Positions 13,632 to 34,820 of a DNA stretch of 64,000 nucleotides are shown here, in pieces (within the stretch, counting starts at the first letter, position 1; the number at the start of each line of letters is the position of its first letter). This DNA is from an uncultured Verrucomicrobiae bacterium (lineage in GTDB: Bacteria; Verrucomicrobiota; Verrucomicrobiia; Limisphaerales; JAHDYP01). The stretch covers positions 593,202 through 657,201 of the forward strand of contig CAVXWU010000004.1 in assembly GCA_963765535.1 (NCBI GenBank), read 5' to 3'. The notes under the pieces were generated by a model. It was not told the DNA's origin. It worked only from the letters and a program-made list of their open reading frames with translations, and ran no database searches. Made by a program: the position numbers and the translations under genes.

Positions 13632-13850
13632 GGAGAGGTAATTTAGCGATCGACCGAAGCCCTTTTAGCGCAGGTCCCGGGCGCGGGTCAAAGCCTGTTG
13701 ATGATCAGGGTTTTGAAAGATCGCTATAATCCGCGACACTACCGGTACTCGACCGTTGACACCCCCCCGACCTTTGTTAGTCTCGCCACTCCATTTCGAT
13801 GGTTTGTTCGACTTACGGAATCCACTGAAGCGAAAACGCAGGACAGTTCT

Positions 13851-16875: not shown

Positions 16876-16963
16876 GTCGCATCGCGTCGTCCGCGAAGCG
16901 GAGCGCGGTTGTGTCCCGTCTGCGGGACCAGCCGCAGCAACGTCCGACGGTCGCATCACGGTT
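16876..16963 (+). repeat. Left-flank module of composite repeat, copy 1
   Basis: ..GGGTCGCATCGCGTCGTCCGCGAAGCGGAGCGCGGTTGTGTCCCGTCTGCGGGACCAGCCGCAGCAACGTCCGACGGTCGCATCACGGTT. It aligns with 32875..32978 of copy 2 apart from one ~14-nt deletion, a 1-nt indel and a few substitutions. Confidence 0.8.
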
Positions 16964-17685
16964 CGAGGACGAGGGAGGAGGACGAGGGACGAGCACGAGG
17001 GACGAGGACGAGCACGAGGACGAGCACGAGGACGAGCACGAGGGACGAGCACGAGGGACGAGCACGAGGGACGAGCACGAGGGACGAGCACGAGGGACGA
17101 GCACGAGGGACGAGCACGAGGGACGAGCACGAGGGACGAGCACGAGGGACGAGCACGAGGGACGAGCACGAGGGACGAGCACGAGGGACGAGCACGAGGG
17201 ACGAGCACGAGGGACGAGCACGAGGGACGAGCACGAGGGACGAGCACGAGGGACGAGCACGAGGGACGAGCACGAGGGACGAGCACGAGGGACGAGCACG
17301 AGGGACGAGGGACGAGGGACGAGCACGAGGGACGAGGACGAGCACGAGGGACGAGGACGAGCACGAGGGACGAGGACGAGCACGAGGGACGAGGACGAGC
17401 ACGAGGGACGAGGACGAGCACGAGGGACGAGGACGAGCACGAGGGACGAGGACGAGGCACGAGGGACGAGGACGAGCACGAGGACGAGCACGAGGGACGA
17501 GGACGAGCACGAGGGACGAGGACGAGCACGAGGGACGAGGACGAGCACGAGGGACGAGGACGAGCACGAGGGACGAGCACGAGGGACGAGCACGAGGGAC
17601 GAGCACGAGGGACGAGCACGAGGGACAGAGCACGAGGGACGAGCACGAGCACGAGGGACGAGGACGAGGACGAGGACGCACGCGC
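16964..17685 (+). repeat. T-free tandem array 1 (13-bp and 19-bp units built from GAGCAC / GAGGGAC / GAGGAC)
   Basis: The last T before the array is at 16963 and the next T is at 17686. Every base between them on the top strand is G, A or C. GGG recurs every 13 nt from 17042 to 17302, which gives 21 units. A 19-bp periodicity follows from 17321. Confidence 0.95.
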
Positions 17686-17692
17686 TGTTCGT

Positions 17693-17898
17693 GTGCGCGT
17701 AGCCGCAGTAATGTACCCCCCGTCACCTGAGATGGGCGCTTTCCTCTTTCGGGGAATTATTCTGCCCAATAATCATTCTGCCACTCCCCCGCCAACCCGG
17801 ATCGCTCACCCCGAAGTGGCAGGATGATGTCGGCAGAATGATGGGAAGCCTACCGTCTCGTTGCCTGGGAACATTCGACCGGCTCGAACCATTCGCGC
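17693..17898 (+). repeat. Right-flank module of composite repeat, copy 1 (contains four-box ATTCTGCC hairpin 17757..17841)
   Basis: GTGCGCGTAGCCGCAGTAATGTACCCCC...GGGCGCTTTCC.CTTTCGGGGAATTATTCTGCCCAATAATCATTCTGCCACTC...GAAGTGGCAGGATGAT.GTCGGCAGAATGAT.GGAAGCCTACCGTCTCGT.GCCTGGGAACATTCGA.CGGCTCG.ACCATTCGCG. It aligns with 33729..33933 at roughly nine positions in ten by eye. Confidence 0.85.
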
Positions 17899-17971
17899 GT
17901 TGCAGCAACAGCCGACGGTCGCTGCGCGTCGGGTTGCGACATTCTTGAATGCCCCGAACCGCGTGCGCGCG

Positions 17972-18028
17972 TTGCTGCGACTGGCGATTCGGGTCGCGCT
18001 CCAGCCAAGCTGCACGTCGTCCGCGTGC
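17972..18028 (+). repeat. Extra partial copy of the left-flank start segment at the 3' end of copy 1
   Basis: TTGCTGCGACTGGCGATTCGGGTCGCGCTCCAGCCAAGCTGCACGTCGTCCGCGTGC matches 32856..32912 (GCTGCTGCGACTGGCGCTTCGGGTCGCGCTCCAGCCAAGCTGCGCGTCGTCCGCGTGC) with 3 mismatches. Confidence 0.8.
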
Positions 18029-18040
18029 CGCGAGCGGGTA

Positions 18041-18068
18041 ACAGAAAAGGCCCGGCGGATGCCGGGCC
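18041..18068 (-). terminator. Intrinsic terminator of the RRM gene
   Basis: On the minus strand, the stem GGCCCGGC-AUCC-GCCGGGCC (18068..18049) is followed by UUUUCUGU (18048..18041). It lies 27 nt downstream of the RRM gene stop. Confidence 0.65.
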
Positions 18069-18094
18069 TGGGTCAAACTTAGATTATCGGGAAA

Positions 18095-18403
18095 TCAATA
18101 GCGTCCACGGTTACCGTATTCACGGCGACCGCCGCCGCCACCACCCGAACGATCTTCGCGTGGCTTGGCAATGTTGACCGTCAATTCGCGGCCGTCGACA
18201 GATTGGCCGCTGAGGGCGCGGATGGCGGCCTGGGCTTCGTCGGCCGTGCTCATGGTGACGAAACCGAACCCGCGGGGGCGGCCGGTCTCGCGATCCATCA
18301 TCAAATTGACTTCGGAGACGACACCGTGAGCGGAGAAGGCATCCCGCAGTTGGGTTTCAGTGGTATTGAAGGAAAGGTTTCCCACAAATAATTTATTACT
18401 CAT
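18095..18403 (-). CDS. Single-RRM RNA-binding protein with Gly/Arg-rich tail
   Basis: Track ORF of 102 aa. RNP-2 is LFVGNL and RNP-1 is RGFGFVTM. The tail is REDRSGGGGGGRREYGNRGRY. This is the architecture of bacterial Rbp-type glycine-rich RNA-binding proteins. Confidence 0.9.
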   Translation of the reverse strand: MSNKLFVGNLSFNTTETQLRDAFSAHGVVSEVNLMMDRETGRPRGFGFVTMSTADEAQAAIRALSGQSVDGRELTVNIAKPREDRSGGGGGGRREYGNRGRY

Positions 18404-18629
18404 ACTTGATGTTTTCTGCCCAGACGAACCGGTTCTTTTGCCAGACTGTTCCCGAACATCGGGTCTAAAATCATCACTGAACTGAGTTCAACTGAGGATT
18501 CACCATGCCTTGAAAGAGACAAGCTATCGCGCAGGACGCGGGACAAACTGACAGGCCGGAGTGGGAAAGCAAGCCTTATCTTTGCCATTGGGAGTCTGCG
18601 ATTCATTGACATGCCCTTTCTCCGGGAGG

Positions 18630-21600: not shown

Positions 21601-24600
21601 CCGCGGGCGATCCCACGCAACAAGGAGCGGCGGGCGCACTGGCCCGGAGCAATCCGCAGTATTTCTTTACCCGGTTGACCGCCAACGCCGAGTTTCGCCT
21701 GCGCGTGGCCGATCACATTCGCAAGGCGTTCTTCGATGGCGGCGTGTTGAGCCCCGAAGGTTGCCGTGCCCTTTTCACGGCGCGCAGCAATGAAGTCTAC
21801 CATGCGATCGCGACCGAGTCGGCCCGCTGGGGCGACTCCAAACGTTCCACCCCCCGCACCCGCAATGAAGACTGGGCTCTCGAAATGAGCCGGGTCTATG
21901 GAGATTATTTCAACCAACGGACCGGGATTGTTCTCGGGCAATTAACAGCCAAAGGACTCTACCCGAACGTCGACGCCCCATCCTTGAATCCCAATGGCGG
22001 CCTCGTGCCGCCCGGATCCACCGTGACGATGGCTGCGCCGGCCGGCACGATCTACTACACCCTCGATGGATCGGATCCGCGGCTGCGCGGTGGCGGGGTG
22101 GCTGCGACCGCGCAGATCTACTCCAGCCCATTGACCTTGTCCCAGAGCGTTCGGATCAAGGCCCGCGCGCTGAGTGGCGGCACCTGGAGCGCGCTGACCG
22201 ACGCGACGATTTACCTCAACCGGGATTTCACAGACCTCCTGGTTACGGAGATCATGTACCATCCTCAGGCGGCGGCGACGTTTGACAGCGAGGCTTTGGA
22301 GTTCCTCGAATTGAAGAACGTCGCGAGCACGAACCTCGAACTCAGCGGTGTGCATTTCACCGATGGGATCCAGTACTCCTTCCCACTCGGCATGCTCCTT
22401 GGTCCGGGCCAGTTCGCGGTGCTGGTTAGTGATCCGGTCGCCTTTGCCAGCCGATACCCCGGGGTGCGCGTCGATGGCGTGTTCACCAATCACCTCTCCA
22501 ACAGCGGCGAACGAGTGATCCTGGCCCACGCCAACGATGTTCCGATCTTTTCCGTGGCATACGAGGCCGCCCTTCCCTGGCCGGTCACGGCCGATGGAAC
22601 GGGATTCTCGCTCGTGCCCCTGAATCCGAATCTTAATCCGGACCCGAGTAGTGCATTGAATTGGCGGAGCAGCGCCTCGATCGGCGGGTCGCCGGGCGCG
22701 GACGATCCGCCCTCGTTCCTTCCCCGGATCCTGGTGAACGAAGCGCTTACGCACACGGACCTGCCGCAACTGGATTCCATCGAGCTCTACAATCCTAATC
22801 TGACGAATGTGGACGTCGGTCATTGGTTCCTGACCGACCAGCGGAATCTCCCCGGCAAGTATGCATTTCCTTCGCCCACCATCATCCCGGCCGGTGGCTT
22901 TTTGGTTCTGACCGAAAACGACTGGAACCCCGATCCGCTTTCGACCAACGGTTTCCGGCTCAATTCTCATGGCGAAGAAATCTATCTCTACTCAGCCGAC
23001 GCCATCGGCCAACTTACCGGTTACAGCGACGGGTTCGCCTTCGGTGCCGCGCAGAACGGGGTGACTTTCGGGCGTTACCTCAATAGCGTGGGCGAAATCC
23101 TCTATCCCGCGCAGACCGCCAACACCCTGGGTGCGCCCAACGCCGGGCCGCGGGTGGGACCGGTAGTCATCAACGAAATCCGTTATCATCCCGCGCCGGG
23201 AGACGAGGAGTTTGTGGAGCTGAAAAACATCACCAACGCGCCCGTGAAGCTTTACGATCCCAATTTTCCCACCAACACGTGGCGCGTCGAAGGATTGGGC
23301 TACCGATTCCCGGAGAACGTCGAGATATCCGCCAATGGACTGCTCCTGCTCGTGGCGGCCGATCCGGCAACGTTTCGGACGAAGTATGGTGTCCCGGCGG
23401 CCGTTCCCATTCTGGGCCCGGTCCCGGGCACGTTGCAGGACAGCGGTGAGTCTCTGGCCCTCCAACGACCCGATACGCCGGACCTGGACACCAATACCGG
23501 CGCGATCTTCATTCCGCAGATCGACGTGGACGTCGTGCGATACAATGACAAGTCCCCCTGGCCCACCAACGCCGATGGCTTCGGTCCGTCCCTCGAACGG
23601 CTCGACGCCCGCGCCTATGGGAACGACCCGGTCAACTGGCGGGCCAGTCCGGGTCCTGCGTCACCCGGCCAAGAAAACACGGGCAACCGTCTGCCGCTGG
23701 TGGAGGCCGGCGCGGATGTGTCACTGACCGCCGCGACGTTTCCGTTGAACGTTCCGCTGGCCGGTTCCGCCCAGGACGACGGTCTCCCGAATCCGCCGGG
23801 CGCATTGACATTGACCTGGAGCCAGGACACCGGCCCGGGCCTCGTCGCGTTCAGCAATGTACACTTGTCGAATCCTTCGGCGAGCTTCCCTGGCGTGGGC
23901 ACGTATGGCCTGCGGCTTACGGCCGACGACGGTGCCCTGCAGGTAAGCGACGTGCTCAGCGTGACGATTGACCGGCTCCCTTCAAATGTGCCGATTGTGA
24001 GCAAAGGCTCGGCCTGGAAATACCTCGACAACGGATCGGACCAGGGATCGGCCTGGACATCGCCTACATTCAACGATGCAAGCTGGCCATCCGGGTCGGC
24101 CCCGCTCGGATACGGAGACGCCGACGGTGTGTTGCCCGTTACGCTGGTGGGCTATGGTCCCGACGCCAACAACAAGTACCTCACCACCTATTTCCGCCAG
24201 ACGTTCAATGTGTCTAATCCGGCCGATGTCACGGCCCTGACACTGAGCGTGCAGCGGGATGACGGAGTTGTGGTTTATCTCAATGGCGCTGCCGTCTTCG
24301 TCGACAACATGCCGGCCGGACCGATCGGATACCTGACCTCCGCCGTCACCGCCGTGGGCGGCGCGGATGAAACAACATTCTATATCCAGTCCATTGATCC
24401 GGCCCTGCTGCGCCAGGGGGCGAATGTCGTGGCCGCTGAAATCCATCAGGCCGGCGGGAACAGCAGCGATATCATCTTCGATCTCGAACTTATCGGACTG
24501 GGATATTCCGCTAACCAGGCGCCCACAGCCAATGCGGGCCCGGACCAGGCCGTGACCCTCCCTGCCACGGCAGAGCTTCACGGTACCGCGAGTGATGATG

Positions 24601-25049
24601 GCCTGCCGATCCCGCCCGGCCTGCTCACCTTCACCTGGTCGAAAGTCAGTGGCCCGGGATCCGTCATTTTTTCAAACCCCTATGCGCTCGAAACCAGCGC
24701 GAGTTTCTCGGCATCGGGTACGTATGTGCTCCGCCTGACGGCTGCCGACGGCGTATTCTCCGTGAACGACGATCTGACGGTTACAGTGAGCGGGCAGACG
24801 CAGTCGCCGCCAGAGTTCGAGTCCGTTGCCTGGGATGCATCCCAACCTCCGGTGTTGCGCCTGACATTCACCGCCGTCGCCGGGCGAACCTATACTGTCC
24901 AATACCGGGATACGCTGGAGCCGGGTTTATGGTCGAAACTGGCGGACATCCCTGGCCAGGTTCAATCCGGTCCGGTGGAGGTGCAGGACTCGAACGTGTC
25001 GGAGAACACCACGCGCTTTTATCGAATTGTCACTCCTCAACAACCATAG
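18630..25049 (+). CDS. Giant secreted Lamin-tail-domain (LTD) / PA14 / CotH-family protein (2139 aa)
   Basis: Track ORF 18561..25049. I moved the start to ATG 18630, which has GGGAGG just upstream and a signal-peptide-like MLRRMISRRLLQSFRSGCLLVSLFLAVGALQGQ. LTD modules include VILSEFMADNES..WIEVYNTGASAVDLAGWAL, LLVTEIMYHPQ, ILVNEALTHTD and VVINEIRYHPAPGDEEFVELKN. A PA14-like block is GNWTFGVNSDDGFSLEIG..YPLRLLFYECGGGSEVELF. The CotH core is HAFRLFFRQEYGASKLDYPMF..FYHLYINGQYWGIFNTAERPE. Two Ig/PKD-like modules are present (..ANAGPDQAVTLP..). A C-terminal RFYR module is also present. Confidence 0.85.
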   Translation: MLRRMISRRLLQSFRSGCLLVSLFLAVGALQGQVILSEFMADNESTLADEDGTYSDWIEVYNTGASAVDLAGWALTGDPLHQALWGFPSTNLPPKGFLVVFASGKNRAVAGAPLHTDFSLKASGEYLALLEPGGGVATEFAPAFPSQYPDVSYGVVQEVTTNAFVPSGAPVRVWIPSSAQGSTWTQPAFNDAGWTSGSTGVGYEIAVPGFAALCYVANVGVCSLGAAEGVVNNPGQQFSVAAENAAVLNYLNTADSAHYGNDRAFPGLPIGPDRDNFVLEATATITIPAAGNWTFGVNSDDGFSLEIGSFYMSYPDPRGPADTLQTFNFPAAGDYPLRLLFYECGGGSEVELFAAAGSYAAWDPTHFHLVGDMANGGLSVLSPVISGGEGTASYRPLLATDVESPMLGVNASAYLRLPFTVADPAALESLTLRMRYDDGFVAYLNGQEVARRNAPAAPLWNSAATAAHPNDQALIFEDFNLSDRLNLLQPGNNLLAIQGLNRSAADTDFLIMPELLELQITDADTQYFAKGSPGAPNGAGFVAFVADTKFDHDRGFYDAPFQLSITTATPGATIVYTTDGSVPSLTHGTVVSGPIPISATTVIRASAFKAGFAPSGVDTQTYLFTADIIHQSPTGQPPPGWPASWGANVVDYGMDPDVVNAPAYAGEIEDDLKSIPTFSIVTESGNLFDPATGIYANASQDGRDWERPASVELIYPDGTPGFQVNAGLRIRGGYSRSSNNPKHAFRLFFRQEYGASKLDYPMFEHQGGTETFDAFDLRTFQNYSWSFEGDYRFIGLRDQFSRDAQLALGQPGERGDFYHLYINGQYWGIFNTAERPEASFGASYFGGDKDDYDVIKVDTGAGYTIFATDGNMDAWTRLWQAATNGFATDAAYFKVQGRNTDGTPNPAFENLLDVDNLIDYMLVIFFTGNIDAPISAFIGNTNPNNMYAVRNRTGLYGGFRFLAHDSEHTLLHESSLGNNDELHRDRTGPFAAGDPTQQGAAGALARSNPQYFFTRLTANAEFRLRVADHIRKAFFDGGVLSPEGCRALFTARSNEVYHAIATESARWGDSKRSTPRTRNEDWALEMSRVYGDYFNQRTGIVLGQLTAKGLYPNVDAPSLNPNGGLVPPGSTVTMAAPAGTIYYTLDGSDPRLRGGGVAATAQIYSSPLTLSQSVRIKARALSGGTWSALTDATIYLNRDFTDLLVTEIMYHPQAAATFDSEALEFLELKNVASTNLELSGVHFTDGIQYSFPLGMLLGPGQFAVLVSDPVAFASRYPGVRVDGVFTNHLSNSGERVILAHANDVPIFSVAYEAALPWPVTADGTGFSLVPLNPNLNPDPSSALNWRSSASIGGSPGADDPPSFLPRILVNEALTHTDLPQLDSIELYNPNLTNVDVGHWFLTDQRNLPGKYAFPSPTIIPAGGFLVLTENDWNPDPLSTNGFRLNSHGEEIYLYSADAIGQLTGYSDGFAFGAAQNGVTFGRYLNSVGEILYPAQTANTLGAPNAGPRVGPVVINEIRYHPAPGDEEFVELKNITNAPVKLYDPNFPTNTWRVEGLGYRFPENVEISANGLLLLVAADPATFRTKYGVPAAVPILGPVPGTLQDSGESLALQRPDTPDLDTNTGAIFIPQIDVDVVRYNDKSPWPTNADGFGPSLERLDARAYGNDPVNWRASPGPASPGQENTGNRLPLVEAGADVSLTAATFPLNVPLAGSAQDDGLPNPPGALTLTWSQDTGPGLVAFSNVHLSNPSASFPGVGTYGLRLTADDGALQVSDVLSVTIDRLPSNVPIVSKGSAWKYLDNGSDQGSAWTSPTFNDASWPSGSAPLGYGDADGVLPVTLVGYGPDANNKYLTTYFRQTFNVSNPADVTALTLSVQRDDGVVVYLNGAAVFVDNMPAGPIGYLTSAVTAVGGADETTFYIQSIDPALLRQGANVVAAEIHQAGGNSSDIIFDLELIGLGYSANQAPTANAGPDQAVTLPATAELHGTASDDGLPIPPGLLTFTWSKVSGPGSVIFSNPYALETSASFSASGTYVLRLTAADGVFSVNDDLTVTVSGQTQSPPEFESVAWDASQPPVLRLTFTAVAGRTYTVQYRDTLEPGLWSKLADIPGQVQSGPVEVQDSNVSENTTRFYRIVTPQQP

Positions 25050-25172
25050 CATGCGAATCCCGCGGTCCACTCATTTGATGGCCTGGCGAAGACCGGGAAT
25101 TTGATCATCATTCATCGGGTCTTTTGGCCCCCCAACCTATTAAATCTGGAGTATGCCAATGCCATCCCTCAT

Positions 25173-28100
25173 ATGCCCATTTTGACTGCAGTCCGATCGC
25201 GCTTCGTCTTGCTGGTTCTGATGCTCTTTGTCTTGGTCTCGGTCCGCGCCCAAAACGTTCTGGTGACCGAGATCATGGTCCATCCACCGGGCACCAATCT
25301 CCTCGAACAGTGGTTTGAACTCCAAAATCGCGGCCCGGCCGCTGTGGATCTTTCCGGTTGGCGAGTGACTCGCGGGGTCGACTATCTCTTTCCCAGCAAT
25401 ACTGTCCTCGCCGCGGGCGGCTACCTCGTGGTGGCCGCGGACCGGCAGACCTTCAGCGGGTTGCACCCGACGGTGACGAATTTCGTTGGCGGCTGGGAGA
25501 GCACGATCGGTCATGCGCTCGAGCTCACCGACCGATCAAACCGCGTGGTGCATGCCGTCGAGTTCTACGACCAGGGGGATTGGGCGGTCCGGCAAATGGG
25601 TCCGCCGCATTTCAACCACACCGGCTGGGAATGGCATGCCGAATTCGATGGACTGGGAGCCTCGCTCGAATTGATCAACCCGGCCTTGCCCGATGGCTAC
25701 GCCCACAATTGGGGTAGCAGCACGGTGATGGGCGGCACCCCCGGACGCCCCAACTCCATCGCCTCCTCGAACAACGCACCGTTAATCGCCGATGTGCATC
25801 ATCGTCCCGTGATCCCACAACCGAGCGATCCCGTCACCGTGACCGCCCGGGTGGTGGACGAGTTGTCCGTCGGCCTCGTGGTTTCTTTGCATTGGCGTGT
25901 GGATGGCGCGGCCAGTTTCAATGTCATCGCCATGGCGGATGACGGCGCGCACGGCGACGGCACGTCGGGCGACGGTCTGTTTGGCGCCATTCTCCCGGCG
26001 CAACCGGATCTGACCGTGGTCGAGTTTTATCTGCAGGCGCAAGACCAGGGAGGCAACCTGAGGACTTACCCCGTCTTCATCCCCCCGACCAATTCGACGC
26101 GCACGGCCAATCTGCTTTACCAGGTGGACAGCGGCGCTTACGCGGGCACCCAGCCGGTCTATCGGATCATCATGCGCGGAGTGGAGCGGGCAGAGCTCTT
26201 CGACCTCGGCCGCCAGTTCCCGGACGCCGACAGCGACGCCCAGATGAACGCGACCTGGATTTCCTCAGACGGCGTGGTGAGTGGCGGGTCGACCACCCAG
26301 ATCCGTTACAACTGCGGCGTGCGCAACCGCGGGCACGGCACGCGCGTCGCTAATCCGAACAACTACCACGTGAACATCCCGTCCGATCGCCTTTGGAAAG
26401 GCCAGGCCGGAATTAACCTCAACGCCCACTATGCTTATTCGCAGGTCCTGGGCAGCGCCGTCTTTCGCCGGCTGGGCGTGCCGATGGCCGATTCCCGCGC
26501 CGTGCAAGTGCGCGTCAATGGGATCGATCTCATGGCTTCGGTCGGCGGCGACTCCTTCGGTTCCTACGCCGCCAACGAACAATACAACAAGGATTTCGTC
26601 CAACGCTCCTGGCCGATCGATCCCGGCGGCAATGCGTATCGCGGTATCCGGGGCCCAACCGAGACCGGACCGCAAATCGAAGCGGATCTCACCTGGCACG
26701 GGCCGGACTTCTTCGTCAGCGGGTCCTACACGAACGCCTATTTCAAACAAAACAACTTTGTCCAAAACGATTACTCCGATCTCCTGGAACTCCTCGGTGT
26801 GCTCAACGAGATCCCCGGTTATTCGAGCTCGGCCGCCTATGTGACCGACGTCAACCGCGTGATCGATGTCGAGGCCTGGATGCGGTACATGGCCATCAAC
26901 ACTCTCCTGGCCAACGGCGAAACCTGCCTGGCCAATGGGGTGGGAGACGACTACGCCCTCTATCGCGGGACGCTCGACACCCGCTTTGAAGTGCTCCCTT
27001 ACGATCTGGATACCGTGATGGGGCGGGGCCTGACCCCCACCAGCCCGCGCAACGGACTCTGGCGCATGACCAACTTGCCGGTCATGGACCGGTTCATGAA
27101 GACGCCCGAGTTCGCCCCTGTCTATTACCGCCAACTCAAGACGCTCGCCGACACGGCATTTTCCACGGCGCAGATGGATCCGCTGCTTGATCAACTGTTT
27201 CAGGGCTACGTGCCGCAGGAGACGATTGACACGATGAAGGCCTTCAATGCGAGCCATGTGGCTTACGTGCTCTCCCAGATCCCAAACACTCTGGTCGTCA
27301 GCAACAACCTCCCGATTCTCAACGGCTATCCCCACACCACTGTTCCCATCATTGCCTTGACCGGCGCCGCCAATGCCTTGAACACCCGCACAGTCCTCGT
27401 GGGCGGTGGCGCGGCCACCTATTCCGCCTGGGAGGGTACGTGGTCGATCAACGGAATCGTTCTATATCCCGGCATCAATCGACTCCTGGTTCAGGCCCTC
27501 GATGCCGACGGTCAAGAAGTGGGCCGCGCCACCGATGACGTGTGGTATGACGACGGTGCTGCCCAGTCCGCGGGCGGGACTCTCCAAACGGACACCACCT
27601 GGACGGCAGCGGCCGGGCCGTTCGACATCACCTCCACCCTCACCGTCGCCGCCGGCGTCACGCTCACACTCGAACCCGGCCTTACAGTTTATCTCGGGCC
27701 GGGCGTCAACCTCGTGGTCGCCAATGGCGGACGGCTCCTCGCCGAGGGCACTGAGACCGCGCCCATTCGATTCACCAGGCTCCCCGGCGCCACCACCGCG
27801 TGGGGCGGAATCACGATCAATGGGGGGATCGGTTCGCCCGAGACCCGCATTACCCACGCCCATCTGGAGTTCAACGGTTCGACGGCCATCCACTCCTCGG
27901 GCGGCACAGTATTCCTGGACCATCTCACGTTTGGTTCGACCGACCACCAATACATTTCACTCGACGGTTCCTCTTTTGTGGTCAGCCATAGTGATTTCCC
28001 AACCCCCACGGCGGGTTTTGAACTTCTCCATGGCACCGGCGGGATCAAGGCCGGCGGATACGGCATCTTTTACCGGAACTTTGTTGGTGCCCCCAACGGC

Positions 28101-31100
28101 TACAACGACGCGATCGACTTCACCGGGGGCAATCGCCCGGGACAACCTCTCGTCCATTTCCTCGAAAACGTGTTTGTCGGGAGCGGCGACGATCTGCTCG
28201 ATTTGGACGGCACGGACGCCTGGGTGGAAGGCAATATCTTCATGCATTGCCACAAGAATGGATCGCCGGATTCGTCCAGTGCCGTGAGCGGCGGCGACGA
28301 CGGCAACGCGACTTCCGAGATCACCATCGTGGGCAACTTGTTTTATGATTGCGATCACGCGGCCACGGCCAAGCAGGGCAATTTTTATACGCTGCTCAAC
28401 AACACGATCGTCCATCAAATACACGAGGGCGGCACCGACACGGCCGGAGCGCTCATGAATTTTGCGGATGCCGGCACCACCGAAGGCGCGGGGGCCTATC
28501 TCGAAGGCAATATCGTGGTGGATGCCGAGGCCCTCGTCCGCGACCAGAACGCCGCTATTGTCACGTTTACCAATAACCTCCTGCCGTTCCCATGGTCCGG
28601 ACCCGGGGGGGCCAATTCCACCGCCGATCCGCGACTGAAGTATATTCCGCAACTCGCGGAAACCACCCAGTTCAGCAGTTGGGAAGAAGCTCAGGTGCTG
28701 CGCGATTGGTTCAGCCTGATGCCCGGGTCGCCTGCCATCGGCACGGGACCGAATCATCTGGATAAAGGTGGAGTTGTGCCGATGGGCGCCTCGGTCAGTG
28801 GCGAACCGTCCGGCACGAACAACCTGACCAGCGCCACACTCGAGGTAGGCTTTAACCGCGCGGGCAGCGGAATTCCCGTCGCCGGGTTCCCCGAGGGTTC
28901 CGGCTATGTTGCCTACCGCTACCGTCTGGACGGGGCCGCGTGGAGTACCGAACGGGACATTCATATGCCTATCAGTCTCGTCAATCTCTCCAGCGGCCCG
29001 CATCGCGTCGAAGTCTCAGGTAAACGCGACACGGGCCCTTTCCAGGACGACCCGGTGTTTGGCGATGCGGCATTAGTCAGCACTTCGCGAACCTGGACAG
29101 TCGATCCCGGCGCCGTTCCTTCCAATCTCCCAACCGTGCGCTTGAACGAAGTGCTGGCGTCGAATCGATCCGTGCTCACCAATGGCGCCGCGACGCCCGA
29201 CATCGTCGAGCTTTTCAATTTCGGCAGCGCATCGGTCGACCTGTCCGGAATGGGGCTCACCGATAACGCGGATTTGCCCTACAAATTCACCTTCGCCGCA
29301 GGCACTCAGCTCGCCGGCGGCGCGTTCCTGGTTCTATATGGCGACAACGATTTCACCGCGCCCGGCGTTCACCTCGGATTCTCGATTAAAGCCTCGGGCG
29401 ATAATGTCTTGCTCCACGCCGCCGCGGCGAAAGGCGGTCAACCCCTGGACCAAGTCGTGTTCGGCTTGCAGATCGCCGATTATTCCATCGGACGTGTGCC
29501 CGACGGCACCTGGACGCTCTGCGAACCCACCTTCGGTTCTCCCAACGTGACCGCCGGCCTCGGGCGCTACTGGGACCTGAAGATCAATGAGTGGCTCGCC
29601 GACGCCCAGTTCGCGGCCAACAACGATTTTGTCGAACTCTACAACCCGGAACCTCAGCCGGTCCCGCTCGGTGGATTATACCTGTCCGACGCGGCCGGCG
29701 CGCCCGACCGGCATCCGATCGCACCGCTGAGCTTCATCTCCGGCGCCGGCTACACCCCGTTCATTGCTGATAGCCAGCCGAACCAGGGCGCGGACCACTT
29801 GAATTTCAAGCTGTCGCCGGACGTGGGGCTACTGCTCCTCTCGGCGCCCGATCTGACTTTGATTGACGCCATTAACTACGGCCCGCAACAGACCGATGTG
29901 TCGCAGGGTCGCAGCCCGGACGGAAGTGAAACGCTTGCGGATTTCACGCAACCTTCCGACGGTGGACCCAATCCGGGCCTGGGCGGGGTCATCTCGGTGA
30001 CCAATGTCACTCAGACCATCGAGCCGCTGCTCGAGGTCACAACATCCGCGTGGCGATTTGATTCTTCGGGGATCGACTATGGGACGGGCTGGCGTCTCCC
30101 GGGTTTCGACGACTCCGGTTGGAACAGTGGTTTCGGCCTGTTCGGCCGCGAAACCACGCCGCAGGTCTATCCTTATCCCTTCCAGACCGCCATCCCGGCG
30201 CCGAGCCAGTCGGGCGGGCACATCACGGTATACTACCGAACTCACTTTTCCTGGACCGAAGCCCTGGCCGAGTTCCAATTGATCGCCACGAATTACGTCG
30301 ATGACGGGGCGGTCTTTTACCTCAACGGGGTCGAGGTGGGCCGGCTCCGCGTCTCAGCCGACCCGGTGCTTTATGCGAGCACGGCCTCCAACCAGGACAA
30401 CGAGGGCGCGCCCGAGCGATTAGTCTTTCCCACGAACAGCCTCGTTCGAGGTGACAACGTAATTGGAGCCGAAGTCCACCAGGCCAACAGCGGGAGCAGT
30501 GACGACGTGTTCGGCGTGTCGCTCGCGGCGATCCAATTCACCACAAACATCGTGACCCAGACCTTTGGAGTGCCGGTGCTGCTCAATGAGGTGCTTGCTC
30601 GGAACCAGACTCTTACGAATCACCTGGGCCATACTGCCGACTACGTCGAGCTGTTTAATCCTTCCACCAACACCGTGGACCTCTCCGGGCTGAGCCTGAG
30701 CACCGACCCCAACGATTCCCGCCGCTGGGTCTTCCCCGCTAATCGCAGTCTCGCGCCTTCGGCCTACACGGTGATCTACCTGGACGACGCCGCGCCCGCC
30801 TCACCCACCAACACCGGCTTTGCCCTGGGTGCCAACGGCGACGTGCTTTATTTCTTTAACCGTCCGCTGGGCGGCGGAGCTCTGGTCGATTCCATCCGGT
30901 TTGGCCGGCAAACGCCGGACTTCTCGATCGGGCGCACACCCGATGCCGCCGGTCATTGGACACTCAATCTTCCCACTCCCGGCGGTCCGAACAGCTCGGC
31001 TGGCCTGGCGAACATTTCCGCCCTCCGGATCAATGAATGGATGGCCGATCCCTCGAAGGGCAGCGATTGGCTCGAGCTCGCGAATTCCGCCGGCCAACCC

Positions 31101-32822
31101 GTCGCGCTTGATGGCCTGTTCCTGACCGATGATCTGTCGGATCCGAACAAGTCACCGATTCCACCCCTCAGTTTCATCGGGACTGGCGGCGACGCCTGGG
31201 CGGTGTTCATTGCCGATAGCAGGCCCGGCGACGGAGCGGATCATGTGGACTTCTCGTTGAGCAAATCCGGCGAAGCCCTCGGGTTGTTCTCGCCCGCGGG
31301 AGTTATGATCGACGGCGTGACCTTTGGTCCCCAGCCCCTGGATGTGGCGCAGGGGCGCCTGCCTGACGGTTTCCCGACGATCGTGAATTTCGCCAGCACC
31401 GCCTCGCCCGGAACATCCAATTTTCTGCCGTTGCCCGGCGTGGTCATCAACGAGGTGCTGACGCATACCGACCCGCCGCTGGAGGACGCCGTGGAGTTCT
31501 TCAACCTCACTCCCGTCGGCGTCAACGTGGGAGGCTGGTACCTCAGCAACTCAAGGGATGACTTCAAGAAATACCGGATCCCCGATGGAACCATCCTCCC
31601 CGCCAACGCCTTCCTCGTCCTCTACGAAGGCCAGTTCAATGCCGGCGCAACCCCATTCACGTTCAATTCCGCCCACGGCAATCGGGCCATCCTCTCCCAG
31701 GCCGACGCCCAGGGCAACCTCACCGGCTACCGCGCCGAGATGGAGTTCGGCGCCGCCGCTAATGGCGTCTCATTCGGTCGCATCCCTACCAGTGTCGGCT
31801 TCGACTTCACCGCCGTGAGCGCGACTTCCTTCGGGGCCGATCAGGCCGTCACTGTGGATGAGTTTCGCATGGGCGCCGGTCTACCCAACACCGAAGCCAA
31901 GGTCGGTCCCGTGGTGCTCAGCGAAATGCTCTACTATTCGGCCACCGGCGGCCTGGAAAACGACGAAGACGAGTTCATCGAACTGGAGAACATCAGCGGC
32001 GCCCCGGTGCGGCTCTATGATCCCGGTTATCCCACGAACACCTGGAGTCTGCGGAGCGCCGTCGACTTCGTATTTCCGAGCAACGTCATGCTCGATGCCG
32101 GAGGCCGGCTGTTGGTCGTCGGTTTTCCACCCACCGATCCCCAACTGCTGGCACAGTTCCGCGCCAGGTTCAGTGTGCCCGCCGCTGTTCCTGTTTTCGG
32201 CCCATGGAGCGGACATCTCGCCAACGACAGCGACAGCGTGGAACTCTACCGCCCCGATACCGTGCAGTTGCCGCCTCATCCGGATGCCGGTTTCGTGCCC
32301 CAGATCCTGGTGGACAAGGCGGACTATGCCGCGGTTGCACCGTGGCCCGCTGCCGCGGCCGGTGGCGGCAATTCCCTGCAGCGCCTGAACCTTTCCCGCT
32401 ACGGCAATGACCCGGCCAATTGGTCGGCCGCCATACCTACCGCGGGCCGAGCGAATATGGCCGATCCTACCGACACCGATCATGACGGTCTGCCCGACGT
32501 GTGGGAACTCACCTACTTCGGCACCCTTGATCGCGACGGCACCGACGACCTGGATGGCGATGGCATCACCGACTTCGGAGAGTATTTGGCCGGCACCTCG
32601 CCAATCGGGGATTTCCGTTTCCTCTCCGTATCCCTGGGGACGGTGGTTTCCTTGGAGTTCGTGTCTCAGTTCGGCCGGCCCACAACCGTCGAATACCTCG
32701 ACAACCTGGGCGGCCTATGGCAAACGCTCACCAACGTGCCCGCGCCGGCGCAAACGACCCGAATCATGGTGACCGACGCCTACCCGACCGGGACGCGCTT
32801 TTATCGTCTGGTCGCCCCGTGA
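25173..32822 (+). CDS. Giant secreted LTD / CotH / beta-helix protein, paralogue of the upstream gene (2549 aa)
   Basis: Track ORF 25101..32822 starts at a TTG. I moved the start to ATG 25173 (MPILTAVRSRFVLLVLMLFVLVSVRAQN). LTD modules include VLVTEIMVHPP, VRLNEVLASNRS, LKINEWLADAQ, VLLNEVLARNQ, LRINEWMADPS, VVINEVLTHTD and VVLSEMLYYSA. The CotH core is YNCGVRNRGHGTRVANPNNYHVNIPSD..INLNAHYAYSQVLGSAVFRRLGVP. A parallel beta-helix region is GVTLTLEPGLTVYLGPGVNLVVANGGRLLAEGT... Acidic Ca-binding-type repeats are DTDHDGLPDVWE..DLDGDGITDFGE. The C-terminus ends TRFYRLVAP. Confidence 0.85.
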   Translation: MPILTAVRSRFVLLVLMLFVLVSVRAQNVLVTEIMVHPPGTNLLEQWFELQNRGPAAVDLSGWRVTRGVDYLFPSNTVLAAGGYLVVAADRQTFSGLHPTVTNFVGGWESTIGHALELTDRSNRVVHAVEFYDQGDWAVRQMGPPHFNHTGWEWHAEFDGLGASLELINPALPDGYAHNWGSSTVMGGTPGRPNSIASSNNAPLIADVHHRPVIPQPSDPVTVTARVVDELSVGLVVSLHWRVDGAASFNVIAMADDGAHGDGTSGDGLFGAILPAQPDLTVVEFYLQAQDQGGNLRTYPVFIPPTNSTRTANLLYQVDSGAYAGTQPVYRIIMRGVERAELFDLGRQFPDADSDAQMNATWISSDGVVSGGSTTQIRYNCGVRNRGHGTRVANPNNYHVNIPSDRLWKGQAGINLNAHYAYSQVLGSAVFRRLGVPMADSRAVQVRVNGIDLMASVGGDSFGSYAANEQYNKDFVQRSWPIDPGGNAYRGIRGPTETGPQIEADLTWHGPDFFVSGSYTNAYFKQNNFVQNDYSDLLELLGVLNEIPGYSSSAAYVTDVNRVIDVEAWMRYMAINTLLANGETCLANGVGDDYALYRGTLDTRFEVLPYDLDTVMGRGLTPTSPRNGLWRMTNLPVMDRFMKTPEFAPVYYRQLKTLADTAFSTAQMDPLLDQLFQGYVPQETIDTMKAFNASHVAYVLSQIPNTLVVSNNLPILNGYPHTTVPIIALTGAANALNTRTVLVGGGAATYSAWEGTWSINGIVLYPGINRLLVQALDADGQEVGRATDDVWYDDGAAQSAGGTLQTDTTWTAAAGPFDITSTLTVAAGVTLTLEPGLTVYLGPGVNLVVANGGRLLAEGTETAPIRFTRLPGATTAWGGITINGGIGSPETRITHAHLEFNGSTAIHSSGGTVFLDHLTFGSTDHQYISLDGSSFVVSHSDFPTPTAGFELLHGTGGIKAGGYGIFYRNFVGAPNGYNDAIDFTGGNRPGQPLVHFLENVFVGSGDDLLDLDGTDAWVEGNIFMHCHKNGSPDSSSAVSGGDDGNATSEITIVGNLFYDCDHAATAKQGNFYTLLNNTIVHQIHEGGTDTAGALMNFADAGTTEGAGAYLEGNIVVDAEALVRDQNAAIVTFTNNLLPFPWSGPGGANSTADPRLKYIPQLAETTQFSSWEEAQVLRDWFSLMPGSPAIGTGPNHLDKGGVVPMGASVSGEPSGTNNLTSATLEVGFNRAGSGIPVAGFPEGSGYVAYRYRLDGAAWSTERDIHMPISLVNLSSGPHRVEVSGKRDTGPFQDDPVFGDAALVSTSRTWTVDPGAVPSNLPTVRLNEVLASNRSVLTNGAATPDIVELFNFGSASVDLSGMGLTDNADLPYKFTFAAGTQLAGGAFLVLYGDNDFTAPGVHLGFSIKASGDNVLLHAAAAKGGQPLDQVVFGLQIADYSIGRVPDGTWTLCEPTFGSPNVTAGLGRYWDLKINEWLADAQFAANNDFVELYNPEPQPVPLGGLYLSDAAGAPDRHPIAPLSFISGAGYTPFIADSQPNQGADHLNFKLSPDVGLLLLSAPDLTLIDAINYGPQQTDVSQGRSPDGSETLADFTQPSDGGPNPGLGGVISVTNVTQTIEPLLEVTTSAWRFDSSGIDYGTGWRLPGFDDSGWNSGFGLFGRETTPQVYPYPFQTAIPAPSQSGGHITVYYRTHFSWTEALAEFQLIATNYVDDGAVFYLNGVEVGRLRVSADPVLYASTASNQDNEGAPERLVFPTNSLVRGDNVIGAEVHQANSGSSDDVFGVSLAAIQFTTNIVTQTFGVPVLLNEVLARNQTLTNHLGHTADYVELFNPSTNTVDLSGLSLSTDPNDSRRWVFPANRSLAPSAYTVIYLDDAAPASPTNTGFALGANGDVLYFFNRPLGGGALVDSIRFGRQTPDFSIGRTPDAAGHWTLNLPTPGGPNSSAGLANISALRINEWMADPSKGSDWLELANSAGQPVALDGLFLTDDLSDPNKSPIPPLSFIGTGGDAWAVFIADSRPGDGADHVDFSLSKSGEALGLFSPAGVMIDGVTFGPQPLDVAQGRLPDGFPTIVNFASTASPGTSNFLPLPGVVINEVLTHTDPPLEDAVEFFNLTPVGVNVGGWYLSNSRDDFKKYRIPDGTILPANAFLVLYEGQFNAGATPFTFNSAHGNRAILSQADAQGNLTGYRAEMEFGAAANGVSFGRIPTSVGFDFTAVSATSFGADQAVTVDEFRMGAGLPNTEAKVGPVVLSEMLYYSATGGLENDEDEFIELENISGAPVRLYDPGYPTNTWSLRSAVDFVFPSNVMLDAGGRLLVVGFPPTDPQLLAQFRARFSVPAAVPVFGPWSGHLANDSDSVELYRPDTVQLPPHPDAGFVPQILVDKADYAAVAPWPAAAAGGGNSLQRLNLSRYGNDPANWSAAIPTAGRANMADPTDTDHDGLPDVWELTYFGTLDRDGTDDLDGDGITDFGEYLAGTSPIGDFRFLSVSLGTVVSLEFVSQFGRPTTVEYLDNLGGLWQTLTNVPAPAQTTRIMVTDAYPTGTRFYRLVAP

Positions 32823-32855
32823 CCGGCGAGAAACACTGATTCAAACCCTTCGCAC

Positions 32856-32978
32856 GCTGCTGCGACTGGCGCTTCGGGTCGCGCTCCAGCCAAGCTGCGC
32901 GTCGTCCGCGTGCGGAGCGCGGCTGTGTTCCGTCTGCGGGACCAGCCGCAGCAACACCCCGACGGTCGCATCACGGTT
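32856..32978 (+). repeat. Left-flank module of composite repeat, copy 2
   Basis: It starts 34 nt after the stop of the 2549-aa gene. See copy 1 (16876..16963 and 17972..18028) for the aligned sequence. Confidence 0.85.
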
Positions 32979-33721
32979 CGAGGACGAGCACGAGGAGGAG
33001 GACGAGCACGAGGAGGAGGACGAGCACGAGGAGGAGGACGAGCACGAGGAGGAGGACGAGCACGAGGAGGAGGACGAGCACGAGGAGGAGGACGAGCACG
33101 AGGAGGAGGACGAGCACGAGGAGGAGGACGAGCACGAGGAGGAGGACGAGCACGAGGAGGAGGACGAGCACGAGGAGGAGGACGAGCACGAGGAGGAGGA
33201 CGAGCACGAGGAGGAGGACGAGCACGAGGAGGAGGACGAGCACGAGGAGGAGGACGAGCACGAGGAGGAGGACGAGCACGAGGAGGAGGACGAGCACGAG
33301 GAGGAGGACGAGCACGAGGAGGAGGACGAGCACGAGGAGGAGGACGAGCACGAGGAGGAGGACGAGCACGAGGAGGAGGACGAGCACGAGGAGGAGGACG
33401 AGCACGAGGAGGAGGACGAGCACGAGGAGGAGAACGAGCACGAGGAGGAGAACGAGCACGAGGAGGAGAACGAGCACGAGGAGGAGGACGAGCACGAGGA
33501 GGAGGACGAGCACGAGGAGGAGAACGAGCACGAGGAGGAGGACGAGCACGAGGAGGAGGACGAGCACGAGGAGGAGAACGAGCACGAGGAGGAGAACGAG
33601 CACGAGGAGGAGAACGAGCACGAGGAGGAGGACGAGCACGAGGAGGAGAACGAGCACGAGGAGGAGAACGAGCACGAGGAGGAGAACGAGCACGAGGAGG
33701 AGGACGAGCACGAGGAGGAGC
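32979..33721 (+). repeat. T-free tandem array 2: 41 x 18-bp units GACGAGCACGAGGAGGAG (10 units with AAC instead of GAC)
   Basis: The last T before the array is at 32978 and the next T is at 33722. Units start at 32983 + 18k for k = 0..40. Units 0-24 begin GAC. The AAC variants are units 25, 26, 27, 30, 33, 34, 35, 37, 38 and 39 (hand count). Confidence 0.95.
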
Positions 33722-33728
33722 TCTTCGA

Positions 33729-33933
33729 GTGCGCGTAGCCGCAGTAATGTACCCCCGTCGCCCGACATGGGCGCTTTCCGCTTTCGGGGAATTATTCTGC
33801 CCAATAATCATTCTGCCACTCACCCGCTAACCCGGATCGCTCACCCCGAAGTGGCAGGATGATTGTCGGCAGAATGATTGGAAGCCTACCGTCTCGTCGC
33901 CTGGGAACATTCGAGCGGCTCGGACCATTCGCG
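33729..33933 (+). repeat. Right-flank module of composite repeat, copy 2 (four-box hairpin 33792..33877)
   Basis: It aligns with 17693..17898. A degenerate copy of the left-flank start follows at 33934..33975 (GCTGCTGCGGCTGGCGCTTCGCGCACAGTCGCGCTCC). Confidence 0.85.
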
Positions 33934-34043
33934 TGCTGCTGCGGCTGGCGCTTCGCGCACAGTCGCGCTCCGGCAATCGCCGGAGCAGCTTGACAAACGG
34001 CAGCAGCAGCAGAGCATAGCCTCGAGTTTATCTGCTCCGTCCT

Positions 34044-34820
34044 ATGCTCAAGCGTTCCAGGATTCTTGTAGATTGGCCTTTGCGGAAGCCGGGGGCGGCG
34101 AGGCCGGGTTTCACCCTGATTGAATTGCTGGTGGTGATCGCCATCATTGCCATCCTCGCCGGGCTATTGCTTCCCGCATTGGCCAACGCCAAGGAGAAAG
34201 GCTCACGGATCGTATGCGTGAACAACAACAAGCAAATCGCACTGGCGATGATCATGTACACGGACGACAACGGCGAGCGGATGCCTTGGCCCAATTGGGG
34301 CAACGATTACGGCCCGGGTTGGTTGTATCAACCGGTGGGCGGGCGCGCCCCGGACCCGATGAACACCAACGAATGGCCCTCCATCGAACAAGGACTCTAC
34401 TGGCCGTTCTTGCGCGAACGCCGCACCTACAATTGCCCCCTGGACCGGACCAATGATGTCTCGTGGGCCCAACGCCGACAACGGATCTCCAGCTATATCA
34501 TGAACGGCGCCGTGTGCAGCTTCGGCCGGCTCAGTGATGGCCGAACGCACAAAATCAGCGCCTTCAACCCGATGGCCTATGTGCACTGGGAACCTGACAT
34601 CAAGAATTGGGGCGGGGTGTGGGGCGCCAACCCGGGCCACGACGCCAGCCAGTTCCCGAACGAGTTGGAGGGGATTGGTCGCCGCCATAAACTCGGCGCA
34701 ATCATCACCGCCTTCGACGGCCACGTGCATTTCATTCGTTACGAGGATTTCCAGGACCAGCAACAATCGCAAAAGCCCGGCCTGCTCTGGTGTGTGCCGG
34801 ACACTCCGACCGGCGAATAA
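34044..34820 (+). CDS. Prepilin-type N-terminal cleavage/methylation-domain protein (DUF1559-like pseudopilin)
   Basis: Track ORF of 258 aa. The class-III signal is [34 protein letters not shown], followed by [24 protein letters not shown]. This matches the abundant PVC-type pseudopilin-like family. Confidence 0.85.

Follow-up and report, generated by a model that had tools for sequence, protein, structure and literature searches.

A 64,000-nucleotide stretch of DNA from an uncultured Verrucomicrobiae bacterium (contig CAVXWU010000004.1 of GenBank assembly GCA_963765535.1, positions 593,202 to 657,201), referred to below as the window, raises the question of what an intergenic tandem array crowded with Shine-Dalgarno (SD) hexamers may be doing behind a gene. 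The array, designated array 2, occupies positions 32979 to 33721 and was proposed in a sequence-only reading to act as an RNA sponge from the 3' untranslated region (UTR) of the preceding gene. The evidence presented here suggests instead that array 2 is probably a young, slippage-driven, non-coding minisatellite. It would form the hypervariable middle of a mosaic intergenic repeat resembling repetitive extragenic palindromic (REP) sequences, bacterial interspersed mosaic elements (BIMEs) and BOX elements, with the AGGAGG hexamers as a by-product. The repeat as a whole is a composite, non-coding and duplicated element in which the flanks evolve slowly and the array evolves quickly.

Sequence and composition of array 2

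Parsing by script resolves array 2 into 41 consecutive 18-bp units between positions 32983 and 33720 of the forward strand, 31 of which read GACGAGCACGAGGAGGAG and 10 AACGAGCACGAGGAGGAG. The first base is G in all of the first 25 units, which are identical and form the 5' end, and then follows the order AAAGGAGGAAAGAAAG through the last 16, where GAC and AAC forms mix in AAAG-type blocks. This is exactly the unit count and order that had been read from the sequence by eye. Tandem Repeats Finder delimits the same array at 32980-33720 with a period of 18, 41.2 copies, 98% matches and a score of 1412. With head-to-tail units in the range of 10-100 bp, repeated far beyond chance, array 2 has the defining organization of a minisatellite. 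A CRISPR array was also considered and rejected; such arrays require unique spacers of similar length, and the units of array 2 abut directly with no spacers between them.

Motif counts by script place 71 AGGAGG hexamers and 113 GGA triplets within 32979-33721, in keeping with the earlier hand count of 71 and estimate of well over 100. On the forward strand of the whole window, AGGAGG occurs 82 times, so that 71 of the 82 lie inside array 2. The hexamers exist because the amplified unit ends in GAGGAGGAG, and they number 71 because each unit supplies one and a further one is created wherever the next unit begins with G (41 + 30). The top strand is entirely devoid of T (G 361, A 257, C 125; 83% purine), and antisense RNA, with the sequence of the bottom strand, would be composed of 49% C, 35% U and 17% G, with no A. 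Strong G-quadruplex or triplex structures are unlikely, given that the GG runs come in threes with a 10-nt spacer and the purine runs extend to only ~11 nt.

A composite element in two copies

Array 2 and a second array in the window, array 1, are the middle modules of two copies of a single composite intergenic element of ~1.1 kb. The flanks of the two copies are ~91-92% identical with gaps counted and are interrupted by 1-nt indels. The left flanks (16885-16972 and 32899-32987) align with 82 matches, 5 mismatches and 3 gap columns, and the right flanks (17684-17906 and 33720-33942) with 207 matches, 15 mismatches and 2 single-base indels, the latter identifying the right flank as non-coding. 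A further segment of 72 nt, termed X, is 90% identical between its location upstream of copy 2 (32851-32922) and its location downstream of copy 1 (17966-18037).

Against this conservation of the flanks, the paralogous copies differ completely in array organization. Array 1 also lacks T (G 335, A 222, C 155) and is built from GACGAGCACGAG(G) units of 12 and 13 nt along with 19-nt units of GACGAGCACGAGGGACGAG; 21 consecutive identical 13-mers lie near its left flank, and a region of mixed units extends 3' of that block. The hexamers GACGAG, CACGAG and GAGGAG serve as building blocks in both arrays, with the organization into units being what differs, and array 2 corresponds to an array-1-type core to which a GAGGAG hexamer has been added. 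Expressed per unit, array 2 equals the array-1 core GACGAGCACGAGG plus AGGAG, a relationship that the sequence-only reading had recognized and that the repeat analysis bears out. The homologous flanks and common hexamer blocks likewise uphold its view that the two arrays are related. The polarity that it described along array 2, in which a homogeneous block adjoins the left flank and a mixed block lies distal to it, recurs in array 1 and is thus real and common to both, while the extended stretches of identical units that both arrays contain indicate very recent expansion. In contrast, AGGAGG occurs once in the 712 nt of array 1 compared with 71 times in array 2. Therefore, the SD hexamer is not among the conserved traits of the element.

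The element is also rich in hairpins. In the predicted fold, the stem-loop H1 (GCGGCTG..CAGCCGC) encloses a second stem at both of its window sites, 32919-32949 and 16905-16935, and H1 and the left-flank linker that follows are carried by relatives that have no array. The stem-loop H2 is represented at 32860-32884 by a type that also occurs in the related contigs L027, L032 and L033, and the stem-loop at 33938-33972 fits the H2 pattern with 2 mismatches; on the strand shown, an A-T pair in some H2 copies is a G-T pair in others. With H1 at two and H2 at three window sites, and with further occurrences on three unlinked contigs of relatives, these structures behave as recurring extragenic palindromes of 20-40 nt of the REP type. 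No consistent tag is found at the flanks of the five aligned H1/H2 copies. A scan for tRNA and tmRNA genes found none.

Turning to the right flank, the 12-mer motif of the ATTCTGCC hairpin has 5 matches in the window compared with 0.28 expected, and each arm of this long imperfect hairpin carries two (TC)ATTCTGCC(AC) units. In copy 2, the fold of this hairpin (33780-33885) reaches -47.7 kcal/mol on the forward strand with z = -5.9, compared with z = -2.3 on the reverse strand; judged by fold energy, the forward strand is clearly favored in copy 2, which does not hold for copy 1. A sigma-54 promoter reading of the TGGCAG..TTGTC sequence in the hairpin was rejected on inspection by eye because the -12 GC is absent and the spacing differs between copies. 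Near the start of the right flank, a small terminator-like hairpin is flagged in both copies (33775-33790 and 17741-17756); its stem is weak and the assignment is only putative.

Relatives and the array-less backbone

The best matches to PpdK, the product of the gene that array 1 follows, are 94-95% identical and come from metagenomes. The named matches belong to Verrucomicrobiae, which places the organism within Verrucomicrobiota. Among the five contigs that encode these 94-95% identical proteins, gene order after ppdK is not conserved, the element is absent downstream of ppdK in every case, and no comparable tandem array is present in their ~70 kb of sequence. One of the five, L027, carries an array-less backbone at ~13850-13990 that consists of H1, an AGCAAC..CCG.ACGGT linker, ~45 nt and H2. 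The same backbone was found by its left-flank pattern on the reverse strand of the metagenome contigs L032 (1590-1740) and L033 (1165-1320).

Alignment of these three loci with the window copies, after removal of the array and right-flank segment from the latter, yields a two-hairpin consensus of ~130 nt, comprising H1 GCGGCTGTGTCGCAGACCAGCCGC, the linker AGCAAC..CCGCACGGTC and H2 CTGCGRCTG..CAGTCGCG, at unlinked loci in related Verrucomicrobia. The window copies hold a module of ~940 nt between the ...ACGGTTC and CGGACCATTCG... of this backbone, and the module is made up of the T-free, purine-rich array and a segment of ~200 nt with the long ATTCTGCC hairpin. Since the backbone exists without arrays in relatives and the element is absent after ppdK, the arrays appear to have been added recently, in a lineage-specific manner, to a hairpin element that is small and dispersed. 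Exact-protein look-ups of two genes beside the arrays returned no record, no sister strain was found, and a plasmid BLAST search with the right flank returned no match.

A similar architecture with other units is seen in a second contig encoding a 94% identical PpdK (L029, 7900-8200), where two copies of CATCTTTTACC face two copies of GGTAAAAGATCG and three copies of CATGATTCTGTCC lie nearby. As judged from these repeats, the locus suggests a family of double-unit hairpins whose two arms may change together.

A hairpin motif that recurs in Planctomycetota

A longer pattern containing (TC)ATTCTGCC(AC) matches 26 loci of other genomes, nearly all of them Planctomycetota and including Stieleria, Rhodopirellula, Tautonia and a metagenome-assembled genome labelled Phycisphaera. 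In those loci, the 16-nt unit CCCCATCATTCTGCCA is amplified to ~2-12 tandem copies; roughly half of the loci have inverted motif copies opposite it, and a further array, made of 14-nt CCCCATCGTTTTGC-type units, is often found beside it. Tautonia has further strand-asymmetric 16-nt arrays nearby, GCAGAGTTGCAGGGAC and CTCCGCCACTCCTCCT. The motif clusters fall mostly in short gaps between long open reading frames (ORFs), in tandem, convergent and divergent gene arrangements. Short units amplified in tandem next to the same hairpin motif are common in intergenic regions of Planctomycetota, in any gene orientation, which would suit repeat dynamics at the level of DNA better than it would a specific function of RNA. 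Searches of 12 related loci against Rfam gave nothing relevant, and no specific description was found in literature on the hairpin motif and on repeats of the Planctomycetes-Verrucomicrobia-Chlamydiae (PVC) group.

One intergenic region of Tautonia sociabilis (L004, 2533-3106) contains three successive arrays: a purine-rich array with 11 copies of GCAGAGTTGCAGGGAC, a pyrimidine-rich array with 12 copies of CTCCGCCACTCCTCCT, and ATTCTGCC-type units of 8/16 nt. The complement of CTCCGCCACTCCTCCT contains AGGAGG, and the layout of a strand-asymmetric array beside the hairpin motif resembles that of the window element.

By itself, array 2 is of little weight, being a young non-coding repeat with incidental SD-like motifs, although it could be used as a hypervariable typing marker. 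The more interesting lead is that one hairpin motif, often tandemly amplified, ties the Verrucomicrobial element to many intergenic regions of Planctomycetota. An ambitious and rather doubtful extension of this observation is that the T-free arrays and the double-unit ATTCTGCC hairpins constitute one undescribed PVC class, in which short strand-asymmetric units, C-rich and G-poor on one strand, are actively amplified next to a conserved hairpin and either mark transcription boundaries (through R-loops or Rho) or are propagated by a dedicated enzyme. If so, arrays 1 and 2 would represent in Verrucomicrobia what the arrays of Stieleria, Rhodopirellula and Tautonia represent in Planctomycetota. 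A motif that marked a common form of repeat amplification or transcription punctuation in the PVC group would merit a study of its own.

Table 1. Locations of the two element copies in the window and of example loci with the ATTCTGCC motif in other genomes
Feature	Location	Strand	Remarks
Left flank, copy 1	16885..16963	+	Contains H1 16905-16935
Array 1 (copy 1)	16964..17675	+	T-free; 12/13/19-nt units; 21 identical 13-mers toward 5' end, mixed units 3'
Right flank, copy 1	17684..17906	+	Contains ATTCTGCC hairpin 17745-17850
Segment X, copy 1	17966..18037	+	H2 17975-17999; just before terminator of convergent RRM gene (18048-18069, - strand)
Segment X with H2-type stem-loop, copy 2	H2 32860..32884; X 32851-32922	+	H2 GCGAC...GTCGC, 38 nt past stop of 2573-aa gene
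Left flank, copy 2	32899..32979	+	Nested hairpin H1 32919-32949 (GCGGCTG...CAGCCGC); linker AGCAAC..CCGACGGTCGCATCACGGTTC
Array 2 (copy 2)	32980..33720	+	T-free; 41 x 18-bp units; Tandem Repeats Finder and script parse
Right flank, copy 2	33721..33942	+	Homologous to 17684-17906
Small terminator-like hairpin	33775..33790	+	TTTCCGCTTTCGGGGA then ATTATTCT; 55 nt past array 2; consensus terminator scan
Long imperfect hairpin, copy 2	33780..33885	+	Two (TC)ATTCTGCC(AC) per arm; arms ~33790-33819 and ~33851-33881
Second H2-type stem-loop	33938..33972	+	TGCGGCTG...CAGTCGCG; closes backbone; aligns with H2 of L027, L032, L033
ATTCTGCC motif locus	L001 7357-7616		
ATTCTGCC motif locus	L005 4227-4380		
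ATTCTGCC motif locus	L014 802-980		
ATTCTGCC motif locus	L016 3949-4280		
ATTCTGCC motif locus	L020 2388-2835		
ATTCTGCC motif locus	L022 1644-1819		

Coding potential

All six reading frames across array 2 are open because no stop codon can form without a T on the top strand or an A on the bottom strand. The ORFs listed across the array have lengths of 306, 340 and 277 amino acids, and the only one on the forward strand that spans it lies in the frame that would encode GRARGG repeats. Translation could in principle produce an acidic (DEHEEE)n tail by frameshift from the giant gene upstream, or one of the long ORFs could yield a protein that is either RGG-like, (GRARGG)n, or rich in proline and arginine. 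The open frames speak for such products, as does the existence of DDEHED repeats encoded by very similar DNA in an apparent coding region of a viral contig. However, open frames are trivial on a T-free strand. Upstream of the array, the DEHEEE frame runs through 70 open codons from a TGA at 32770, none of them ATG, GTG or TTG, and with periods of 12, 13 and 19 nt in array 1, the two copies would encode unrelated proteins. A search of the 306-amino-acid ORF in the GRARGG frame against 5.8 billion proteins gave no credible homologue, its sole match being an unrelated glycine-rich sequence; with a low-complexity query, this is a weak negative. Taken together, the periods of array 1, the 1-nt indels in the conserved flanks and the startless DEHEEE frame exclude a conserved reading frame. 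Array 2 is read here as non-coding, in agreement with the earlier view that DEHEEE is not a translated gene, and translation of the array, already largely refuted, is scarcely credible. For annotators, the practical warning is that long ORFs of up to ~360 amino acids across T-free arrays are spurious.

The viral contig, IMGVR_UViG_3300045256_000188 (L035), has three copies of GACGACGAGCACGAG at 12090-12150 in an apparent protein-coding region, where they would encode DDEHED three times. This stretch was the sole match when viral contigs were scanned with the array core, and it is not an array. It does illustrate that DNA of nearly the same sequence can truly code for protein in another setting.

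Functional and technical alternatives

The proposal that first drew attention to the locus was that the transcribed array, either as a 3' UTR or as a separate RNA, titrates 30S subunits or a GGA/purine-binding protein through its 71 SD and 113 GGA motifs, or that an antisense CCUCCU RNA masks SD sites. In its favor, the motifs are indeed this dense, the array RNA is predicted as single-stranded and accessible, no canonical terminator separates the upstream gene from array 2, and a gene for an RRM protein lies near copy 1. Among known systems, the CsrB/RsmY/RsmZ sponge RNAs also collect many GGA triplets on one RNA. Those RNAs, however, present GGA in the loops of many short hairpins and have their own promoter and terminator, whereas 20 units of array 2 RNA (360 nt) are predicted to fold at -30 kcal/mol with z = +0.41 relative to shuffled sequences and an almost unpaired centroid. 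Rfam gave no match in the whole window at the gathering score, and at E values up to 10 the region 32700-34100 returned only a chance microRNA match and no CsrB/Rsm family. The sister array, with its different motif content and its single AGGAGG, indicates that SD content follows from which hexamer happened to be amplified. SD motifs are also rare before the genes of the window: an SD 5-mer precedes the first start codon in none of 20 large ORFs and precedes any candidate start within the first 80 codons in 3 of the 20, and the well-defined RRM and DUF1559 genes have no SD motif upstream. These counts suggest that initiation in this organism may be largely SD-independent, and they leave little sign of SD-dependent initiation for a sponge to modulate. 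The absence of the element in the nearest relatives, along with the backbone that lacks arrays, argues for a recent and dispensable feature. No csrA, rho, transposase (including Y1) or reverse transcriptase gene is present among the 22 window ORFs scanned against Pfam. The RRM gene (18095-18403, reverse strand) does sit near copy 1, as had been pointed out, but it is convergent with ppdK, has its own canonical terminator at 18048-18069 and has no counterpart near copy 2. With these points in mind, the sponge proposal does not hold up well and is considered quite improbable.

The main functional rival to a minisatellite is a strand-specific transcription barrier, in which the G-rich non-template strand would favor R-loops that end or insulate transcription, and the C-rich antisense RNA would provide a Rho loading site that keeps antisense transcription out of the upstream gene. 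Rho has a preference for RNA that is C-rich and G-poor, and hybrids of purine RNA with pyrimidine DNA are unusually stable. The extreme strand composition of both arrays, their common orientation at the 3' ends of genes and the position of copy 1 between convergent genes would all suit such a role, and the Planctomycetota arrays next to the same hairpin motif (CCCCATCATTCTGCCA, CTCCGCCACTCCTCCT) are also C-rich and G-poor. On the other hand, the C-rich strand in the Planctomycetota loci has no consistent orientation to the flanking genes, some of which are divergent, copy 2 is followed by a co-directional gene that poses no obvious antisense threat, and relatives manage without the element. 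A barrier, for which the case is made from sequence, is unlikely. A technical explanation would attribute the length of array 2 and the homogeneity of its first 25 units to collapse, expansion or consensus polishing during assembly, as short-read assembly cannot size perfect arrays that are longer than a read. Yet the window presents two arrays of >700 bp with ordered internal variants and unique flanks in one contiguous 64-kb stretch, which is the pattern expected of long reads. An artefact of this kind is very unlikely; it would bear on the exact number of copies, and the array itself certainly exists.

Proposed origin and points that weigh against it

Under the preferred explanation of array 2 as a young minisatellite, the arrays would grow and homogenize by replication slippage or by unequal exchange or recombination among units of 12-19 nt. 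The latest expansion would have occurred at the left-flank side, leaving the blocks of 25 and 21 identical units, and the composite element may have spread by duplication or transposition. Array 2 probably forms a passive part of the 3' UTR of the gene before it. That gene (25101-32822, forward strand) encodes 2573 amino acids and stops at 32822, and the 157 nt between its stop and the start of the array at 32980 agree with the distance reported earlier. Passive transcription is probable because no canonical terminator precedes array 2 and a hairpin cluster follows it. A terminator scan detected no hairpin with a T-run between the stop codon and the array, so that the earlier statement that no obvious terminator is present stands with respect to canonical terminators; two GC-rich stem-loops (32860-32884 and 32919-32949) do lie in this interval, however, and recur in related contigs.

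Several considerations weigh against this explanation. The element is seen in only two copies in the 64-kb window, and variable number tandem repeats (VNTRs) are defined operationally by copy-number polymorphism among strains, whereas the comparison here is between two paralogous copies. In both arrays, the purine-rich strand is the sense strand of the upstream gene and the same conserved hairpin cluster follows, making a role at the transcript level possible. The absence of T over >700 nt in two independently organized arrays could reflect constraint and not only descent from T-free hexamers. Finally, the negative protein search is weak evidence for a non-coding array, given that scoring penalizes low-complexity queries. 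Even so, the 71 AGGAGG hexamers do not imply a dedicated role in titrating ribosomes or proteins.

Comparison with known repeat systems

In structure and function, the element comes close to BOX elements, REP/BIME mosaics and bacterial VNTRs, but it is a sequence homologue of none of them. BOX elements of Streptococcus pneumoniae have the layout boxA - boxB(n) - boxC, in which boxB is 45 bp long and present in few copies, and there are >100 BOX elements per genome. Like the window element, they are dispersed, intergenic, non-coding and hairpin-rich, with conserved ends and a tandem middle of variable copy number. The two have no sequence relationship, however, and the window element differs in having units of 12-19 nt in ~40-55 copies and in being seen twice. 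VNTRs and other bacterial minisatellites, such as the mycobacterial interspersed repetitive unit (MIRU) loci of Mycobacterium, are also head-to-tail intergenic repeats of 10-100 bp in which stretches of identical units are a sign of slippage or unequal exchange. Compared with MIRU loci, the unit of array 2 is shorter, and the array lies inside a larger element that is itself repeated.

REP/BIME mosaics are similar in that short GC-rich palindromes, here H1 and H2, lie just after genes and form mosaics with variable spacers, sometimes in tandem. REPs tagged with GTAG/CGTC have been reported from Planctomycetes and, among Verrucomicrobia, from Opitutus terrae (PMC3733652). For H1 and H2, no GTAG/CGTC tag could be assigned, the window contains no REP-associated tyrosine transposase (RAYT), and REP clusters normally lack a T-free minisatellite of 700 bp. 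More generally, dispersed non-coding satellite families are reported to be uncommon in prokaryotes; for repeats of >30 nt, they were found only in Leptospira interrogans and Methanocella conradii, and species-restricted families of short repeats are known from Burkholderia, Chloroflexus and Mesorhizobium (PMC6749651). By that standard, two copies with arrays of >700 bp make a somewhat unusual family, though they do not amount to an object of a new kind.

Neighboring genes and other observations

The Pfam domains of the 2573-amino-acid protein encoded upstream of array 2 include the Lamin Tail Domain (LTD) and CotH kinase. The gene for this protein is adjacent to another giant gene (18561-25049, 2162 amino acids), and each of the two encodes several Lamin Tail Domains together with CotH kinase. 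Proteins of the FG-GAP/ASPIC, PA14 and DUF1559/prepilin types are encoded near the giant genes, and the large-protein cluster between the arrays is probably secreted or associated with the cell surface.

At 1259-1536 of the window, inverted repeats of 34 nt with 97% complementarity (TAAGTGGTCTGTTTCATAAATACGGTTACGTTCG) mark the ends of a 278-bp segment, with arms that are visibly more AT-rich than their surroundings. The segment lies inside an ORF without a Pfam match (1123-2031) and resembles a miniature inverted-repeat element.

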